Below, one piece after another: positions 4,914 to 48,472 of a stretch of 64,000 nt of DNA. Position 1 is the stretch's first letter, and the number at the start of each line of letters is the position of its first letter. The notes beneath the pieces are model-generated. The model saw only the letters and a program-made list of their open reading frames with translations. It did no database searches and was not told where the DNA came from. Source of the stretch: a virus; IMG/VR virus record IMGVR_UViG_3300042375_000684; one strand, written 5' to 3'. The translations under genes were made by a program, and so were the position numbers.

Positions 4914-5105
4914 TTACATGTTGTCAGAATACCGCTTCATTTGTTCTCGTGCTTCTTCCAAGTAATTAGAAGCACCACCGACTCCACCAGTTTCATCAAA
5001 CCAGACAAAGACACCTTCATCATATTGATAGATATGACTTTCAATTACAATGGGATATTTTGGTTTGGCAAGATATTCGGTATTATCATAATATTCCATA
5101 GTCAA
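4914..5105 (-). CDS. hypothetical protein
   Basis: 63-aa ORF in operon context. Confidence 0.5.
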   Translation of the reverse strand: MTMEYYDNTEYLAKPKYPIVIESHIYQYDEGVFVWFDETGGVGGASNYLEEAREQMKRYSDNM

Positions 5106-5404
5106 TTCCTTCTCATTTGAGCAACATCAATAGCGGCTTCTCTGTTATCACGCCGAATAGGAACAAGATTTGATTTGTGCATTACTGTAATTCCCATAAT
5201 CTCGTTTCCGGAATATACATTTTCAAGTTTTTTTGGTGTTTGGCCTGGAATAGTATCTGAAGTTTTTGGAAGTGTTGATTTTACTCTGTAGTCTGGTATT
5301 TCATTAACGATAATACCCTTATATCTACCAGTAAACCCAACACGAACCAAAAGTAATTCCATTTGTCTTTCAGCTTCAATTAGTGATTTTCTTTTCTTTT
5401 TCAT
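5102..5404 (-). CDS. conserved T4-like phage hypothetical protein
   Basis: GITVMHKSNLVPI motif; 4-nt overlaps on both sides. Confidence 0.65.
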   Translation of the reverse strand: MKKKRKSLIEAERQMELLLVRVGFTGRYKGIIVNEIPDYRVKSTLPKTSDTIPGQTPKKLENVYSGNEIMGITVMHKSNLVPIRRDNREAAIDVAQMRRN

Positions 5405-5706
5405 GTCAATGGTTTCAATTTGAAGTCGGGAATTTGATAAGTGTAAATCTGCATTAACATACTGACCTTGTATAGATCTTGATTCAATCTACCTTCTAGA
5501 TAATCCACAAGATCTATAGTTGAGTTTGTATCTACAAGATGCATATCAAAATCAACTTCAAGAGCTTCAGATATTGTACAATCCAAATCAATCATAATTT
5601 CTACAATACTTTGTTCATATGAACAAATAGTGACGTGAGTTTTATAATAAACCGATTCTAGTAAATTGTCAATAATTGATTTAGAATGGTTGGTCACCAT
5701 ACCCAC
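5401..5706 (-). CDS. hypothetical protein
   Basis: 101-aa ORF in operon context. Confidence 0.55.
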   Translation of the reverse strand: MGMVTNHSKSIIDNLLESVYYKTHVTICSYEQSIVEIMIDLDCTISEALEVDFDMHLVDTNSTIDLVDYLEGRLNQDLYKVSMLMQIYTYQIPDFKLKPLT

Positions 5707-5932
5707 CGATCGTATTTTCTACTTCTTTTACTAAATCTTCATAACCACCAATGTATCTATCATCCCACCATATCTGCGGTACTGTTTTTACACTAGGTAA
5801 TTTTACTTTCATATCGTTCAGATTCTTGTCATCATCTGTGTCTTTCCATTCATATCTGAGACTATATCGTTCCGCAAGTCGTTTTGCTCGGATACACCAA
5901 CCACATCTTGAATGGCCATAAATTGTAATCAT
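5681..5932 (-). CDS. glutaredoxin
   Basis: CGWC active site, TVPQI, YIGGY; start moved to the ATG of MITIYG (AAGGA RBS). Confidence 0.9.
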   Translation of the reverse strand: MITIYGHSRCGWCIRAKRLAERYSLRYEWKDTDDDKNLNDMKVKLPSVKTVPQIWWDDRYIGGYEDLVKEVENTIGGYGDQPF

Positions 5933-6165
5933 TTCTTTAAATCCTTTCTTGTAAACCAATAACTCCAAGAGTGTAGACAGTGATGTGGATCAAACCAAAA
6001 TATGGAATCAATTAACAATACTAAATTAAACTTACCTTCTCTTTTTCGTTGGTAGTTTCGTGCGCTGAAACTTTGATTGCTATAACCACCAAGAATTACG
6101 TTTAATAATATCGAAAATGCTATAAATATTCGCTGAAAATATTTCTTTATTTTTATTGGTTCCAT
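5929..6165 (-). CDS. small membrane protein
   Basis: hydrophobic segment; SARNY motif. Confidence 0.55.
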   Translation of the reverse strand: MEPIKIKKYFQRIFIAFSILLNVILGGYSNQSFSARNYQRKREGKFNLVLLIDSIFWFDPHHCLHSWSYWFTRKDLKK

Positions 6166-6225
6166 GGAATAACTCCTTCATAATGCCATGGTGTATTTAT
6201 TCCATATCAGATATCTTTTATGTGT

Positions 6226-6687
6226 TCACTCCTTAAACTCAACTGGCACACAAAAGCCATTCTTCCATGACGAATATTTTGCCTTAGCAAGACTAGTTTC
6301 AGTTTCTCCGCTGTACAGAATTTTATTGAGCTTGATTTTTTTACGCTTGTCGAGCCAAGTTCCGAGCATAATAATCCCTATAAAGGAAGCAACAAAAACC
6401 GTTAATACACCAGTTGTTACTAAAGCGTCGGCTGTGTGGTAGATAAACCCATATCCAATTGAATATACAAGCCAAATGAAGGCCGCGGCGACAGCAAGTA
6501 CAAATGTAGCAACAACAAGAACTTTAAAGATACTATAGAGAGTCAGTTGCCAATATGAACAAAGATTATCTTTACTCTGGACATATCGCTGGGCATAACC
6601 TTCACTTTTTAAAGTACCATTTGTCTGGCACATCTCAAGATTAAGTTTATAATGCCAGGAATTTTTATTTACGGAAAATAGTTTCAT
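6226..6687 (-). CDS. two-TM membrane protein
   Basis: two long hydrophobic stretches. Confidence 0.65.
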   Translation of the reverse strand: MKLFSVNKNSWHYKLNLEMCQTNGTLKSEGYAQRYVQSKDNLCSYWQLTLYSIFKVLVVATFVLAVAAAFIWLVYSIGYGFIYHTADALVTTGVLTVFVASFIGIIMLGTWLDKRKKIKLNKILYSGETETSLAKAKYSSWKNGFCVPVEFKE

Positions 6688-7163
6688 TTGATACCTTCTT
6701 CATCTAGTGCTTCACGGAGCAGTTTAAGCAATTCATCATATGTCTCTACCATAGGCATAGCATACCGATCACATACCATCTTTACATTACCATACCGATA
6801 AAACTCTTTTGGGCAACAAACAATGACATTATCGCCGTTAAATAGTCCAAGTTCAAGAAGAGTGATTGGTGCTTTTGAATCAGCAGTAAAGTAGTATAAA
6901 TTTGCATCTGCTTGCTCTTGACATTCCAGTTCCCATTCTACTTGTTCATAGAATTTTGTTCCTGGTGTTGGATCTTGAATCCAAGATGAATCCCAATCAT
7001 CGCGGCGGGGATTTAGAAGGACCAGATCGGTATAATCTGAAAGATCATTTGTTAGGCGTACTTGCCAATTCTCTGCTGCACCCATGTCGATTGATCCGCC
7101 GAGGAAAATACTCATTGACTCGTCTTGAATGTAGGGTTCTGGTGCTTTAATTACCCGTGCCAT
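6684..7163 (-). CDS. nucleoside 2-deoxyribosyltransferase-like protein
   Basis: IFLGGSI, NPRRDDW, QVEWE, PITLLELG motifs; start moved to MARVIK. Confidence 0.85.
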   Translation of the reverse strand: MARVIKAPEPYIQDESMSIFLGGSIDMGAAENWQVRLTNDLSDYTDLVLLNPRRDDWDSSWIQDPTPGTKFYEQVEWELECQEQADANLYYFTADSKAPITLLELGLFNGDNVIVCCPKEFYRYGNVKMVCDRYAMPMVETYDELLKLLREALDEEGIK

Positions 7164-41997: not shown

Positions 41998-42591
41998 TCA
42001 TTTGTTTAGAATAAATGCCCCACGGCGATTTTGTGACCAAGCAGCTTCAGTGGAACCTAGGACAGACGGGCGCTCTTTTCCATAACTAACTGTTTGAATT
42101 CTGTTGGCATCAATTCCTTTGGAGATAAGACTTGCTTTAAGAGTCGATGCACGCTTCTCTCCTAGATACAAGTTATATTCTCTTGTTCCACGTTCGTCCG
42201 CATGCCCTTCGATGGTTACCACATATGCAGGATAGTCTTTCATAAACTTTGCTACGTCATCAATAAGCCAATTACTCTCAACATTAGCAGTATCTGCGCT
42301 ATAATTAAAAAATGCGCGAGTATGTCCAATTTTATCTTTGCGAGTCATTTCATCAACTATTGATTTTAATTCAACAACTTGGTTTTCTAAAACTTCAAAA
42401 TTTGTCTGAAGTTCGGATTTATGATCTGTAATAGTATTAGTTAGTTGTGTCACTGCATCAGTAATCTGATCATTGATATAAGTTTTAATATCTTCTGCCG
42501 GTGCAGTAATAGGGGTCGTAGTTTGTGCAAATGCAGCCGTACCTAGTAACATAGCAGCAATTAGTGTAAGTTTTTTCATTTTATTCTCCAT
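41998..42591 (-). CDS. secreted Pal/OmpA-C-like peptidoglycan-binding protein
   Basis: Sec signal MKKLTLIAAMLLGTAAFA, coiled coil, then IEGHADERGTREYNLYLGEKRA...VSYGKERP...NRR. Confidence 0.88.
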   Translation of the reverse strand: MENKMKKLTLIAAMLLGTAAFAQTTTPITAPAEDIKTYINDQITDAVTQLTNTITDHKSELQTNFEVLENQVVELKSIVDEMTRKDKIGHTRAFFNYSADTANVESNWLIDDVAKFMKDYPAYVVTIEGHADERGTREYNLYLGEKRASTLKASLISKGIDANRIQTVSYGKERPSVLGSTEAAWSQNRRGAFILNK

Positions 42592-44121: not shown

Positions 44122-44150
44122 ATTATATACCGATTCTTTACATTTGTAAA
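44122..44150 (-). promoter_or_regulatory. class-2 sigma70-like promoter (GANTC in spacer)
   Basis: TTTACA-N8-GAATCGGTA-TATAAT. Confidence 0.72.
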
Positions 44151-44152
44151 TA

Positions 44153-44177
44153 GAAAAGAGGCCCGAAGGCCTCTTTC
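44153..44177 (-). terminator. Rho-independent terminator with C(UUCG)G tetraloop after nrdA
   Basis: GAGGCC-TTCG-GGCCTC followed by T4. Confidence 0.88.
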
Positions 44178-45197
44178 TTAAGCTTCACATGCAGCGCACC
44201 CAGCGGCTGTTACTCTTTTTCTGGTCAATGCTTGGGCGGCCGACATTGAGTAACTGTAATACAAGCTCTTGACACCCATTTCCCATGCATATAGATAAAG
44301 TGCATTTATTTCTTTTACAGGCATATCTGGATCAACCATCAAGTTCAAACTTTGACCTTGGTCAATGTATTGTTGACGAACACCAGCGTGATCAATAATA
44401 GTGTAAGGGTTAATTTCAGCAAAGGTCTTGAATACTTCTTTTTCATTTGGAGACAAGAAGTCTAGATGTTGGATTGAACCATCTGCATTTTTAATTGTTT
44501 CCCATACCTCTGTTGTGTTTTTACCTTTTTCTTCTAGCAATTCCTGAAGGTAAGGATTTTTAATAGTCACTTTCATCTTTGCAAGATCTTTGACATAGCA
44601 ATTAGAGAACTCAGGCTCGATAGACTGACTTACCTGTCCTAGAATAAAACTACTAGATTTAGTAGGTGCAATTGCCATGGTTGTAGTATTACGCATACCA
44701 TAACCCTTAAGTAATGGTGGTTCACCTAGTTTTATTGCAAGTTCACGTGATGCAGCGTGTGAACGTTCCTGTAATGTTTTTGCAATTTCCATGTTCTTCT
44801 TTGCTGCTTCTTTAGATTCAAAACCAATCATATTAGATTGAAGATATGAATGCCAACCAAGAATACCAACACCGATTGCACGATGATTAATTGCAAATTC
44901 ACGTGCACGCTTCAGATATTCTTGACCTTCAGCTTTACGGATAAACTCTTCACAAACTGTATCAAGGAACATTGTCATAACTTCGATAGCGTCTGTTTCA
45001 ATAATCTCATCCCAGTGAAGAGCATTAATTGATGAAAGGACACAAGTAAAAGTTTCAGTGACAGACGACGGAAGTGCAATTTCGATACAATTATGTACCA
45101 ATATATCGTTGGCAAAAAAAGATGATGTTTCCGGAACTGTTATATCGTACACGGGTATTTCTTCATCATAATCAATGTATTCTATTCTTATACCCAA
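44178..45197 (-). CDS. nrdA: split-intein C-fragment fused to the C-terminal half of class Ia ribonucleotide reductase alpha subunit
   Basis: TTG start; 36-aa IntC ending VYDITV...FFANDILVHN, then CIEI (radical Cys), AIGVG, APTKSSS, QSIEP, SLYY, C-terminal CAAC. Confidence 0.93.
   Translation of the reverse strand: MGIRIEYIDYDEEIPVYDITVPETSSFFANDILVHNCIEIALPSSVTETFTCVLSSINALHWDEIIETDAIEVMTMFLDTVCEEFIRKAEGQEYLKRAREFAINHRAIGVGILGWHSYLQSNMIGFESKEAAKKNMEIAKTLQERSHAASRELAIKLGEPPLLKGYGMRNTTTMAIAPTKSSSFILGQVSQSIEPEFSNCYVKDLAKMKVTIKNPYLQELLEEKGKNTTEVWETIKNADGSIQHLDFLSPNEKEVFKTFAEINPYTIIDHAGVRQQYIDQGQSLNLMVDPDMPVKEINALYLYAWEMGVKSLYYSYSMSAAQALTRKRVTAAGCAACEA
45090..45197 (-). mobile_element. split intein C-fragment (IntC, 36 aa)
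   Basis: blocks F and G with terminal His-Asn and +1 Cys. Confidence 0.92.
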
Positions 45198-46036
45198 TTT
45201 TTAGTTTCCTTTTTTGTAAATTGTCTCCATTCGTTTGAATGGAAGCTGTTATATTTTTCTAAAGTTATTCCATCTTTTTCGGAACATTTTATTAATTCAT
45301 CTACCATACCCCAAAATCCTCTATTTGAAAATCTAAACATTTTCCAATGTTTTAGATGAGGTAAATTATAGTAAACAGAATGTTGAATCCAAAAACTACC
45401 ATTAACCAGTTTATTGTACTTATAGCAACAATTTTTATAAGATTCTAATAAATCTGTGTCGGAATATTTGCTATTTTGATTAGCATATCCTAGACTCTCG
45501 TTACTTCTTATTTTATTCTGTTCAGCAGTTTTCTTTAATCCTTTAGTAATATGAACCCATTCGCCATTTAAAACCTTTGGATCATTCATTGATACTATAC
45601 CCAATCTTTCGCCAGTAAGTAGATTTTTTGCTGGCATAGTTCCAGTTTTACCTTTACTTATAGCTTTATTTGTTTGTATTTTATATTTTTCATATATTCT
45701 TGAACTATAGTTATATACAGACCTTTTATTATTTACAGGGCCGCCATTTAAAAACATTTTTAATGAAAGATAGCAGCGATATTCCCATTTTGTATTATTC
45801 CATATCTTACAAAGTATTAAATGTGCTATAAAATGTTCTCTTGGAGTAAGATATGTAATATTACCTACGTGCTCGCCATCACCTTCATATATTCCATCAT
45901 TATGACGAAGTTTTCTTTTATTATTTTTATAAAAAAATACCGGTACTATATGATGTTTTTCCAAACTACCGCCCCGAATTTTTTTCCTTCTTATACCTCG
46001 TTGGCACATATTTTGGTATATTTTTTCATAATTCAT
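45188..46036 (-). mobile_element. mobE: free-standing MobE-like HNH homing endonuclease
   Basis: MNYEKIY...EKHHIVP...NITYLTPREHFIAHLIL matches the T4 MobE N-terminal pattern (from memory); lies inside the fractured nrdA. Confidence 0.8.
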
Positions 46037-46041
46037 GCAGT

Positions 46042-46081
46042 AAAATCTCCTTTTTATTTTTATTTATAATAAGGGAGATTT
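46042..46081 (-). promoter_or_regulatory. RBS-sequestering hairpin with internal T4 late promoter controlling the HNH gene
   Basis: AAATCTCC(CTT)...TATAAATA (46061-46068)...AAGGAGATTT, then ATG at 46036. Confidence 0.82.
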
Positions 46082-46106
46082 CACTACATTATAGAGTGTT
46101 TAGAGA

Positions 46107-46424
46107 TTATTCACCTATTAGAAGTTCATCATCTTCTGTAAGATCTTTAGCTTCTACCCAACCTCTGTTTTGAGTAAAGATTTTATGATCTGGTGTGCAC
46201 TCAACAACTTTGCCTGTTTTATCATCAGTAATACGTATCATTTTTTTAGTAGAACCAGTTTGGGCGGCCGCAGTAACTTTACAGAAACCTTTTTCTGTTT
46301 TTACTTTAGTCTCAGCTGGTATTCCACCTATTGACCAAAGTTTAACAAATGTTTCTATATCTATTGTTTGTGGTTCTTTTTCAAACGGAAACCACACTGT
46401 CATAATACTATCACCACGTAGACA
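46107..46424 (-). mobile_element. split intein N-fragment (IntN, 105 aa)
   Basis: block A CLRGDS, block B ECTPDHKIFT, NRGWVEAKDL, then stop codon. Confidence 0.92.
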
Positions 46425-47195
46425 CATGTTTGACGCATGGATCTTCATCTTTTTATCTTTATAGACTTGAGGCTTGTTATTGTTAACATTATCACCAAAT
46501 AGGATATAAGGATACCCAATCTCTGATCTACGCTGAAGTACTTTTGCCCAGATTCGGCGCTTCTCTGCATCACCTTTTTTCATTGACTCTATAAATGAGT
46601 CTGAAACAACAATACCAGTAGTTAGTCCCTGAATTGGATTTCCTTCGGTTCCAATATCTAAAAACTCGTCGGCATCTGGATGATCAATATCTTGATATGC
46701 AGCAAAGAAACCTCTGCGAACTGAACCTTGTGAAACTACTGATGCGAGTGTATCATATAGTTGCATAAAGTGGACGGAACCTGATGATGCGCCGGAATCT
46801 GTAATATTAGCCCCACGGTGACGGACTGCACCGAAGTAACCGGAACAACCACCACCATTTTTCATTAACATACCGTTTTCTGCAACGCCAAAAAGAATTG
46901 ATTCCATATTATCATCAATATAAGAGCCAAAGCAAGAAACTGGTAAACCACGCTTCTTACCATAATTAGCCCAAACAGGTGATGAGAGAGAATAGAAACC
47001 ACGTGACATATAATCATAAAATTTGTCTGCATATCCAGGAATACCTAGATATTTTTCTGCTGTTGCGGCGATCTCTCTAATTCGACTTTCTGCAGTTTCA
47101 CCCGCATCTTCATTGATGTAGCCCCTTGAAAGAAACTTTCGTGAGTCTTCATTCAACCAATAAAATTTTTCGTACGTCTTTGTTACCTCTATCAA
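46107..47195 (-). CDS. nrdA: N-terminal half of class Ia ribonucleotide reductase alpha subunit fused to split-intein N-fragment
   Basis: SSPVWAN, LPVSCFG, GGGCSG, QGSVRRG, GYPYI, ASNM followed by intein; no ATP-cone. Confidence 0.93.
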   Translation of the reverse strand: MIEVTKTYEKFYWLNEDSRKFLSRGYINEDAGETAESRIREIAATAEKYLGIPGYADKFYDYMSRGFYSLSSPVWANYGKKRGLPVSCFGSYIDDNMESILFGVAENGMLMKNGGGCSGYFGAVRHRGANITDSGASSGSVHFMQLYDTLASVVSQGSVRRGFFAAYQDIDHPDADEFLDIGTEGNPIQGLTTGIVVSDSFIESMKKGDAEKRRIWAKVLQRRSEIGYPYILFGDNVNNNKPQVYKDKKMKIHASNMCLRGDSIMTVWFPFEKEPQTIDIETFVKLWSIGGIPAETKVKTEKGFCKVTAAAQTGSTKKMIRITDDKTGKVVECTPDHKIFTQNRGWVEAKDLTEDDELLIGE

Positions 47196-48472
47196 AATAG
47201 ATCATCCTCCGTAAATGCTTTTGTTTTCTTTGAATATGCTGTGCTTCTCTTAACAAAGAAGTCAACATTTTTTGTACTTAAAATTTCTTCAACAAACCAA
47301 TCTGTGCTTGAAACTGCAACTTGATCTACTTCATAAATTGGTTTAATATCAATTGCTTGTAGTGATTGGTTGAAACGATGCTTTAGAAATTCCTTGACGG
47401 TCTCTTTTGGAAGGAAGTCTAGATCTGAATCACCATAGATCCAATCTACAATCATGGACTCTGCCTTATATGCTTCTTTGCAGAGTCGATTTACCTCTGA
47501 AATTGTGTCTTTGGTCCACCAATCTGGATTTTCAGCTTTGATAATGTTAACAAGTTCAAAACCGAATCTAGCATGAATGTCTTCTTCTTTTGAAGTCGCT
47601 TCCACTGCATTAGAGATGCCTTTCAACATATTCTTATGCTTGTTGAAAGCCATCATGATTAGAAATTGCGAGAATAATGAAACATTTTCTACAAACATAG
47701 AAAATAGGACAATATTGTGGAAGTAATCTTTATCATCGACTGGGTTCTGAAGAGCTTGTTCTAGGTATGCAATACGCTTTTTTATTGCAGGAACATCTAC
47801 TATAGTTTCAAACTCTTCATTTAAACCCATGATTTCAATGAGATTTGAATAAGCATCGGCATGGCGAACTTCAGATTCTGCAAATGTTGCGCCGACTGCT
47901 TGTACTTCTGGTTTCTTTAGTCTATCACCGACTTTACCCCAGAATGCTTTGACTTGAACTTCTATTTGTGAAATTGCAAGCATTGCTTTCTTTACAATTT
48001 CTACTTCTTCTTTTGTCATTCTTACTTTCATGTCTTGGATATCAGATGAGTAATTAAATTCTGTATGAACCCAATATGAATGACGGATAGCATCTTTATA
48101 TTCGTCTAGTTGTGGATACTCGTAAGGTTTTAAATTAGTTCTTTTACGAAAAATATCTGGCATGTTATTATGGCGATATACAATGTATTCTCTTGCCAGA
48201 TCGTGTAGGCCCATGTCCATTATTACATTTTCAACGGTTCTATGAACTGTATCGACACTTACAATAACATCATTTACTGCACTTTTATTTAAAATATCTG
48301 TTACTTCTGTTGCCACTTCTTCTGGCATTGTTTTACTTCTGATACCGATGGACTTCATTGCTTTAGATACAGCAGTGCTGATCTTGTCTTTGTCATAAAC
48401 TTCTGTAGTCCCGTTTCGTTTGGTAACGTAATTTACTGTCTTAGAATGTTCGTTTGTTGAACTATCTAACAT
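47192..48472 (-). CDS. nrdB: class Ia ribonucleotide reductase beta subunit with N-terminal ATP-cone
   Basis: VTKRNG...YDKDKISTAVSKA cone; KPYEYP, SEVRHADAY, VENVSLFSQF, EDIHARFG di-iron motifs. Confidence 0.93.
   Translation of the reverse strand: MLDSSTNEHSKTVNYVTKRNGTTEVYDKDKISTAVSKAMKSIGIRSKTMPEEVATEVTDILNKSAVNDVIVSVDTVHRTVENVIMDMGLHDLAREYIVYRHNNMPDIFRKRTNLKPYEYPQLDEYKDAIRHSYWVHTEFNYSSDIQDMKVRMTKEEVEIVKKAMLAISQIEVQVKAFWGKVGDRLKKPEVQAVGATFAESEVRHADAYSNLIEIMGLNEEFETIVDVPAIKKRIAYLEQALQNPVDDKDYFHNIVLFSMFVENVSLFSQFLIMMAFNKHKNMLKGISNAVEATSKEEDIHARFGFELVNIIKAENPDWWTKDTISEVNRLCKEAYKAESMIVDWIYGDSDLDFLPKETVKEFLKHRFNQSLQAIDIKPIYEVDQVAVSSTDWFVEEILSTKNVDFFVKRSTAYSKKTKAFTEDDLF

Follow-up and report, generated by a model that had tools for sequence, protein, structure and literature searches.

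A probable fractured nrdA gene, with a split intein at the thiyl-radical cysteine and an HNH-superfamily endonuclease gene between its halves, in an uncultured T4-like phage

The nrdA gene, encoding the large subunit of a class I ribonucleotide reductase (RNR), was analysed at positions 44178-47195 of a 64,000 nucleotide (nt) stretch of IMG/VR virus record IMGVR_UViG_3300042375_000684; this whole stretch is referred to below as the window. The record itself is a 115.7-kb fragment, estimated to be 56% complete, of an uncultured T4-like phage. The gene is very probably a fractured nrdA, with a split mini-intein at the thiyl-radical cysteine, an endonuclease cassette in the intein loop and trans-splicing of the products to NrdA. 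According to this explanation, a mini-intein just before the thiyl-radical Cys of the large subunit would have been broken in its loop by a free-standing HNH-superfamily homing endonuclease cassette, and two polypeptides, NrdA-N::IntN and IntC::NrdA-C, would be produced. The N-terminal (IntN) and C-terminal (IntC) intein halves would then associate as a HINT fold and trans-splice via Cys1, the TPDH block, the terminal His-Asn and the +1 Cys, giving a NrdA of 560 amino acids (aa) with the active site SNMCIEI. With the catalytic loop itself interrupted, the RNR should be active only after splicing. The element most likely spreads when the endonuclease cuts nrdA alleles that do not carry it.

The locus consists of three successive open reading frames (ORFs) on the minus strand, as do all features of the window described here, at 46107-47195 (362 aa), 45188-46036 (282 aa) and 44178-45197 (339 aa), with TTG, ATG and TTG as their respective start codons. 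The extent of the locus and its three-ORF layout had been reported in a first-pass annotation made from the nucleotide sequence, and both agree with the ORF list. The first ORF contains the NrdA N-extein (46425-47195), which is 257 aa long, ends in ...HASNM and shares up to 92% identity with the N-terminal part of the uninterrupted nrdA genes L002 and L003. It continues into the 105-aa IntN (46107-46424; CLRGDS...TPDH...ELLIGE), which is followed by a TAA stop; these lengths, the ...ASNM boundary and the stop are as first annotated and were confirmed in translation. IntN had been written there as CLRGDS...TPDH, and that sequence is present, but TPDH is the internal block B motif and the half ends in LLIGE.

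The third ORF begins with the 36-aa IntC (45090-45197; MGIRIEY...FFANDILVHN) and continues into the 303-aa NrdA C-extein (44178-45089), which starts CIEIALPSS and carries a C-terminal CAAC pair before the stop. The start of IntC overlaps the 3' end of the endonuclease gene by 10 nt, with an AGGA motif at 45207-45210. Across the alleles described below, the IntC ORF starts 10-16 nt 5' of the endonuclease stop, behind an AGGA motif, and its start codon is TTG, GTG or ATG at one aligned codon with a Shine-Dalgarno sequence in each, which supports the TTG start annotated for the window; the ...VHN end and the following CIEI also read as annotated. IntC::NrdA-C would be translated from this Shine-Dalgarno sequence and start codon of its own, both of which are contained in the last part of the endonuclease gene. 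The earlier annotation had allowed for the two parts proving to be one ORF; they are not, since stop codons occur by the dozen between the halves in the frame that IntN and IntC share.

The Pfam RNR barrel domain was found in both outer ORFs. The exteins sum to 257 + 303 = 560 aa, the size proposed from the first reading for a restored NrdA with SNMCIEI at the junction, compared with 555 aa for the uninterrupted homologue L002. Neither piece is shortened, both align collinearly with the 555-aa homologues, and the catalytic motif and the C-terminal Cys pair are kept. The junction corresponds to the Asn-x-Cys-x-Glu active-site loop of class I and II RNRs, the Cys of which carries the thiyl radical. 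The contiguous L002 homologue aligns end to end with the short NrdA structures 6dqx (E 4e-212) and 6dqw, and the junction ...ASNM/CIEI... falls on ...ASNLCTEI... of these proteins; the +1 Cys is aligned with the Cys of SNLCTEI, in line with its annotation as the thiyl-radical Cys of the N-x-C-x-E motif. The insertion point of the previously described NrdA-1 to NrdA-7 inteins is likewise 'directly N-terminal to the ... thiyl radical active site', and the same NrdA site is the commonest for contiguous RNR inteins (PMC2677866).

To place the locus among its relatives, viral contigs were scanned with the N-terminal ORF, which yielded 80 loci, and the alleles were sorted by tblastn with the five parts of the locus. 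The site is empty in 75 loci, with NrdA-N residue 257 joined in frame to NrdA-C residue 1. Because these 75 related loci join residue 257 to the +1 Cys in frame, chance is excluded as the origin of the apparent split. The empty-site alleles closest to the window are L002 and L003, to which the identity given above applies. In L001 the same intein is unbroken, as a 138-aa mini-intein that has no endonuclease, inside a 698-aa nrdA ORF (4989-7085). The loop sequence of L001, ...LLIDGSSSKTIKTER..., corresponds to the place where the fractured alleles hold the cassette. L064 is fractured in the same way as the window, with identities of 78% for IntN, 65% for the endonuclease and 86% for IntC, and a metagenome scan provided the further fractured alleles L165, L188, L189, L190 and L191 (L064 and L189 being grouped together). 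In L191 (764-1081), a deletion has removed the N-terminal ~190 residues of the endonuclease together with the HNH motif and left only the C-terminal third, while a remnant of the 5' arm of the leader hairpin described below is retained and both intein halves and the exteins are intact; L191 looks like an endonuclease-decay stage. The alleles span the gene-breaking model of 2009 (PMC2677866), from empty through contiguous (L001) and fractured with an intact endonuclease to fractured with a decayed one (L191).

Fractured alleles are also found beyond these loci, as at least 44 protein-cluster representatives (349-390 aa) consist of NrdA-N and IntN, with 51-90% IntN identity in a search restricted to IntN residues. 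Since fractured alleles recur in metagenomes and in these clusters, the split is not rare, and it did not arise during assembly. In a tree of the N-extein, split and empty alleles are intermingled, and the window has the empty allele L002 as its nearest neighbour. Sixteen changes are needed on this tree, of which well-supported branches force at least four, with the proviso that the split and empty classes were sampled from different collections and that recombination can blur such a tree; the pattern is consistent with repeated gain or loss of the element. Two unusual arrangements were observed in addition. The distant RNR gene at L193:2501-2941 has IntN-like and IntC-like segments ~80 nt apart with no endonuclease between them, and is either a mini-intein or an endonuclease-less split. 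The 384-aa protein P0033 starts like NrdA-N and IntN but has the tail of the endonuclease (...KKFTKEEIQKWV) at its own C-terminus; it may represent an allele with an in-frame fusion or deletion, or else a misassembly.

The window and five relatives all have the residues of a Class 1 intein: Cys1, TPDH in block B, His-Asn at the end and the +1 Cys. The two halves match the Pfam family Intein_splicing (PF14890) with 25.5 and 24.7 bits at model positions 37-93 and 126-155, each covering part of the model, and many of the relatives carry a precomputed PF14890 match. The nearest solved intein to IntN is NrdJ-1 (PDB 8ubs, E 4e-9, over IntN residues 50-103), a resemblance that the first-pass annotation had suggested, and IntC is similar to the C-terminal strands of several inteins, NrdJ-1 and gp41-1 among them. 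The ratio of non-synonymous to synonymous substitution (dN/dS) between the window and L064 is roughly 0.09 for IntN, 0.18 for the endonuclease and 0.03-0.06 for the exteins, which indicates that exteins, intein halves and endonuclease are all under purifying selection.

Structure prediction of a complex between IntN (with eight extein residues) and IntC (with ten) gave a score of 0.73, and the best control scored 0.01; as a yardstick, 51 of 78 solved complexes scored as highly as the IntN-IntC pair, as did 2 of 108 mismatched pairs. Contact agreement between the runs was at least 91%, and the partner predicted local distance difference test (pLDDT) value at least 72. This predicted binding may only reflect likeness, since similar split-intein complexes have been solved.

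The tail of IntN, CTPDH..T.NRGWVEAKDL.EDDEL followed by a stop, recurs in split NrdJ, DnaB, NrdB, PolA, helicase, Pol III and gyrase genes, and a single split-intein superfamily appears, from these tails, to fracture many replication genes. The IntN tail was seen at the ends of ORFs P0066, P0073, P0076, P0086 and P0087, which have PolA 5'-3' exonuclease, NrdB, DnaB, Pol III alpha and gyrase/topoisomerase domains.

The gene between the intein halves, annotated as HNH from the outset, is a free-standing homing endonuclease ORF of 282 aa (45188-46036), in a frame other than that of the halves. It matches PHROG 655, 'homing endonuclease' (phrog_655, 1e-16), and an HNH PHROG (9e-6), and has no Pfam match in the window. 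Among 50%-identity cluster representatives 780 homologues were found, and in an alignment of 49 of them E26, H28, H29, N59, E67, H68 and H72 are invariant, including the His/Asn motif. Pfam AHH matches weakly in 28 of these 49 (best 9e-5), and NUMOD3 in a few. AHH is a family of the HNH/EndoVII superfamily. The AlphaFold model of the endonuclease has a pLDDT of 89, and no informative fold match for it was obtained with Foldseek against the PDB or with VIA-align wide; the fold searches returned a weak winged-helix/TetR-like similarity at residues ~190-265 and scattered HNH entries at E > 0.5. As these searches were uninformative, the assignment to the HNH (EndoVII, beta-beta-alpha-metal) superfamily rests on the sequence motifs.

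Cultured phages gave only 26-32% identity to the endonuclease by tblastn, in 'homing endonuclease' genes of T4-like Klebsiella and Yersinia phages and of Vibrio phages. Its nearest relatives in viral contigs all lie directly 3' of an ORF ending in IntN. The ORFs concerned are nrdA genes, some encoding an ATP-cone and others not, apart from one UvsW-type helicase gene, so that the endonuclease lineage is regularly associated with split inteins. In the helicase case (L163:1288-2454), the UvsW-type gene ends in IntN and is followed by an endonuclease of the same family, making it a fractured uvsW. At L091:3-2462, an nrdA N-terminal ORF contains a full LAGLIDADG-type intein as well as a terminal split IntN, followed by a relative of the endonuclease, so that one gene contains two inteins. 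Upstream of nrdB in L064, positions 2186-2374 give a second, weak match to the N-terminal part of the endonuclease (27% identity), which may be another free-standing endonuclease or a remnant of one.

The stop of IntN is separated from the ATG of the endonuclease by a 70-nt spacer that folds as a hairpin (46035-46089; -22.6 kcal/mol, z -6.5). The Shine-Dalgarno sequence of the endonuclease gene (GGAG, 46048-46051) and the beginning of its ATG are in the 3' arm. The spacer of L064 also folds (-29.8 kcal/mol, z -7.7). The hairpin is common to five distinct alleles, with compensatory double changes in 6 of 15 pairs. Its loop contains TATAAATA, the T4-type late-promoter consensus, at 46061-46068 in the window, 24 nt 5' of the endonuclease ATG; in four of the five alleles the sequence is found in the loop 22-27 nt 5' of the endonuclease start. 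Within the 115.7-kb record, intergenic sequence makes up 12% and holds 10 of the 17 copies of TATAAATA, nine of these ten being on the coding strand 23-79 nt 5' of a gene start. Such positions fit T4-type late promoters.

By burying the ribosome-binding site and the start codon, the hairpin would keep the endonuclease silent on the long early/middle operon transcript, and translation would probably occur only from a late transcript starting at TATAAATA in the loop. Control of this kind has been described for I-TevI, I-TevII, I-TevIII, segB and Aeh1 mobE, where the long early and middle transcripts fold and hide the ribosome site but late transcripts, which start within the structure, do not (PMC2988022). 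Hairpins were reported in 15 of 16 fractured-gene endonuclease leaders, ten of them with TATAAATA (PMC2677866).

Several observations weigh against parts of this account. TATAAATA is not enriched over the whole window, with eight copies against 5.5 expected, and in allele L188 it is replaced by CATAAATA; the late-promoter argument depends on intergenic position and conservation in the hairpin loop, not on the count for the window. Both intein halves fall below the PF14890 gathering threshold of 35.8 bits, though this is expected for half domains. The dN/dS values are rough, with synonymous sites near saturation between the window and L064. Furthermore, IntC is acidic, with a net charge of -4 to -7 across alleles, and both halves are net acidic in this lineage, unlike the negative-N/positive-C pattern of the NrdA-2 and NrdJ-1 halves (PMC2677866). 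Because this departs from the reported charge pairing, IntN and IntC might associate less quickly than the halves of the published fast pairs.

Three other explanations were considered. A fragmented yet active phage NrdA exists in Aeh1 (PMC3045599), and the NrdA pieces could act in a similar way to Aeh1 NrdA-a/NrdA-b, as a non-covalent complex formed without splicing, in which the intein halves are splicing-dead remnants serving as a docking clasp. The binding model is compatible with this, as it supports association and not chemistry. However, Cys1, TPDH, the His-Asn and the +1 Cys are intact in six alleles and under purifying selection, the break is exactly at the catalytic Cys in the N-x-C-x-E loop, and a 141-residue HINT domain that was not removed would be expected to disrupt the active site, all of which makes docking in place of splicing improbable. 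It is very unlikely that nrdA is decaying or non-functional and the phage dependent on the RNR of its host: split RNR genes of uncertain function do occur in some phages (PMC3653736), and the endonuclease has decayed in L191, yet the intein halves and exteins are intact even in that allele, extein dN/dS is 0.03-0.06, both NrdA halves retain their full length, collinearity, catalytic motif and C-terminal Cys pair, and the same arrangement is found in dozens of independent assemblies.

Endonuclease-bearing group I introns are frequent in the nrd genes of T4-like phages (PMC2988022), and IntN and IntC share a reading frame, as they would if the cassette were removed at the RNA level to restore a mini-intein. 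No intron family was matched in 44900-46500 at E <= 1 in an Rfam scan, which found no other family in the cassette either, two sub-threshold matches being due to chance. With only 70 nt of non-coding sequence and an endonuclease ORF that overlaps the IntC start, there is no room for an intron core, and the conserved IntC start codon and Shine-Dalgarno sequence in every allele count against an intron as well. The same layout in independent metagenomes also speaks against a split created by assembly, and we regard RNA-level removal or an artefact as extremely unlikely. The preferred explanation therefore remains a fractured nrdA with a trans-splicing intein.

Fractured genes, consisting of a split intein with a free-standing endonuclease, were described from metagenomes by Dassa, London, Stoddard, Schueler-Furman and Pietrokovski in 2009 (PMC2677866), as the first-pass annotation had stated. 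The locus shares with these genes a split intein around a free-standing endonuclease, a TATAAATA hairpin before the endonuclease, an overlap of the endonuclease 3' end with the start of the downstream half, and an origin in T4-like phages in water metagenomes. With NrdA-1 to NrdA-7 in particular it shares the host gene nrdA and the site before the thiyl-radical Cys. It differs in that the endonuclease is of the HNH superfamily, whereas those of the 2009 genes are GIY-YIG or Vsr-like, and in having a short NrdA that lacks an ATP-cone with an ATP-cone NrdB, whereas the Global Ocean Sampling (GOS) NrdAs of that study are said to resemble cyanophage enzymes. The window element is a well-supported member of the fractured genes, with an intein of the NrdJ-1/NrdA-2 superfamily.

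The C-terminal ~42 residues of IntN are ~57% identical to those of NrdA-2 when compared by eye with a machine-read sequence (PMC7090010 supplement), while the N-terminal ~60 residues are barely alignable by eye with the same source, which agrees with the divergence from NrdA-2 suggested earlier. No NrdA-2-like IntN N-terminus was found among the relatives. The native exteins are SNL/CNE in NrdA-2 and SNM/CIE here, and IntC is acidic in contrast to the basic IntC N-termini of NrdA-2 and NrdJ-1. With NrdJ-1 (PDB 8ubs, 9omb) the element shares the IntN tail ...CTPDH..T.NRG.V.A..LT.DDEL, the IntC end FFANDILVHN and the split position (105-aa IntN), but NrdJ-1 has a class II NrdJ host and is inserted one residue downstream, and only the C-terminal half of IntN aligns.

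The nrdA-a/mobE/nrdA-b locus of Aeromonas phage Aeh1 is also a T4-like nrdA split by a free-standing HNH endonuclease gene, and mobE is controlled by the same device, a hairpin that sequesters the ribosome-binding site combined with a late promoter. There is no intein in Aeh1 and the pieces assemble without ligation, whereas here the endonuclease is flanked by intact intein halves. In Pseudomonas jumbo phage MIJ3 (PMC6892783), the halves of a split intein in PolB likewise enclose an HNH-family endonuclease gene, and another phage has a related mini-intein in contiguous form, but the host gene and the intein lineage are not those of the window.

The gene order around the locus is frd - td - nrdB - nrdA, among primase, ligase, lysozyme-like and NAD-salvage genes. 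Upstream of nrdA in the operon is nrdB (47192-48472), which encodes the RNR small subunit with an N-terminal ATP-cone (Pfam Ribonuc_red_sm 1e-56, ATP-cone 1e-16; best PDB match 5olk, E 9e-140, full length), and its stop overlaps the TTG start of nrdA-N (TTTGA). The Pfam domains and PDB matches thus describe an RNR of 6dqx/6dqw-type and 5olk-type, with NrdA lacking the ATP-cone that NrdB carries; allosteric control by the ATP-cone would then act via the small subunit in this T4-like phage. Just 3' of the nrdA-C stop, a GC-rich hairpin (GAGGCC-TTCG-GGCCTC) followed by a T-run was read directly from the sequence at 44150-44176 and is a probable operon terminator; it was not among the elements listed by the consensus scan. 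A search of the 115.7-kb record revealed no second copy of the endonuclease and no other intein of the same type, and distant blastn found no close relative of the locus in cultured phages, only nrdA matches of 60-70%. Elsewhere in the window, the translation of an ORF at 41998-42591, taken by itself, shows a signal peptide like those of lipoproteins and a C-terminal sequence of the OmpA type.

Arrangement, insertion site and regulation have all been on record since 2009, and genes broken in this way are common in metagenomes. What is specific to this locus is the HNH-superfamily endonuclease, the short NrdA that has no ATP-cone (the cone being on NrdB), the N-terminal half of IntN that is unlike NrdA-2, and the acidic IntC. 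As an example of a fractured essential gene it is complete and full length, with exteins, intein halves, endonuclease and control elements all present. More tentatively, and with the odds somewhat against it, IntN and IntC may be kinetically competent as a pair while showing no cross-reaction with NrdA-2, NrdJ-1 or gp41-1, and the allele series may allow the gene-breaking model to be tested; an absence of cross-reaction is possible because the N-terminal half of IntN is unlike those of the three inteins and because both halves are acidic. The empty, contiguous, fractured and decayed alleles in near-identical nrdA genes would then permit a direct experimental test, including which allele is cut. 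Independently of this reading, the pair is one more candidate for the naturally split intein toolbox, and with natural comparators close at hand for each proposed stage of the life cycle, the locus is convenient for testing how free-standing endonucleases create split inteins.

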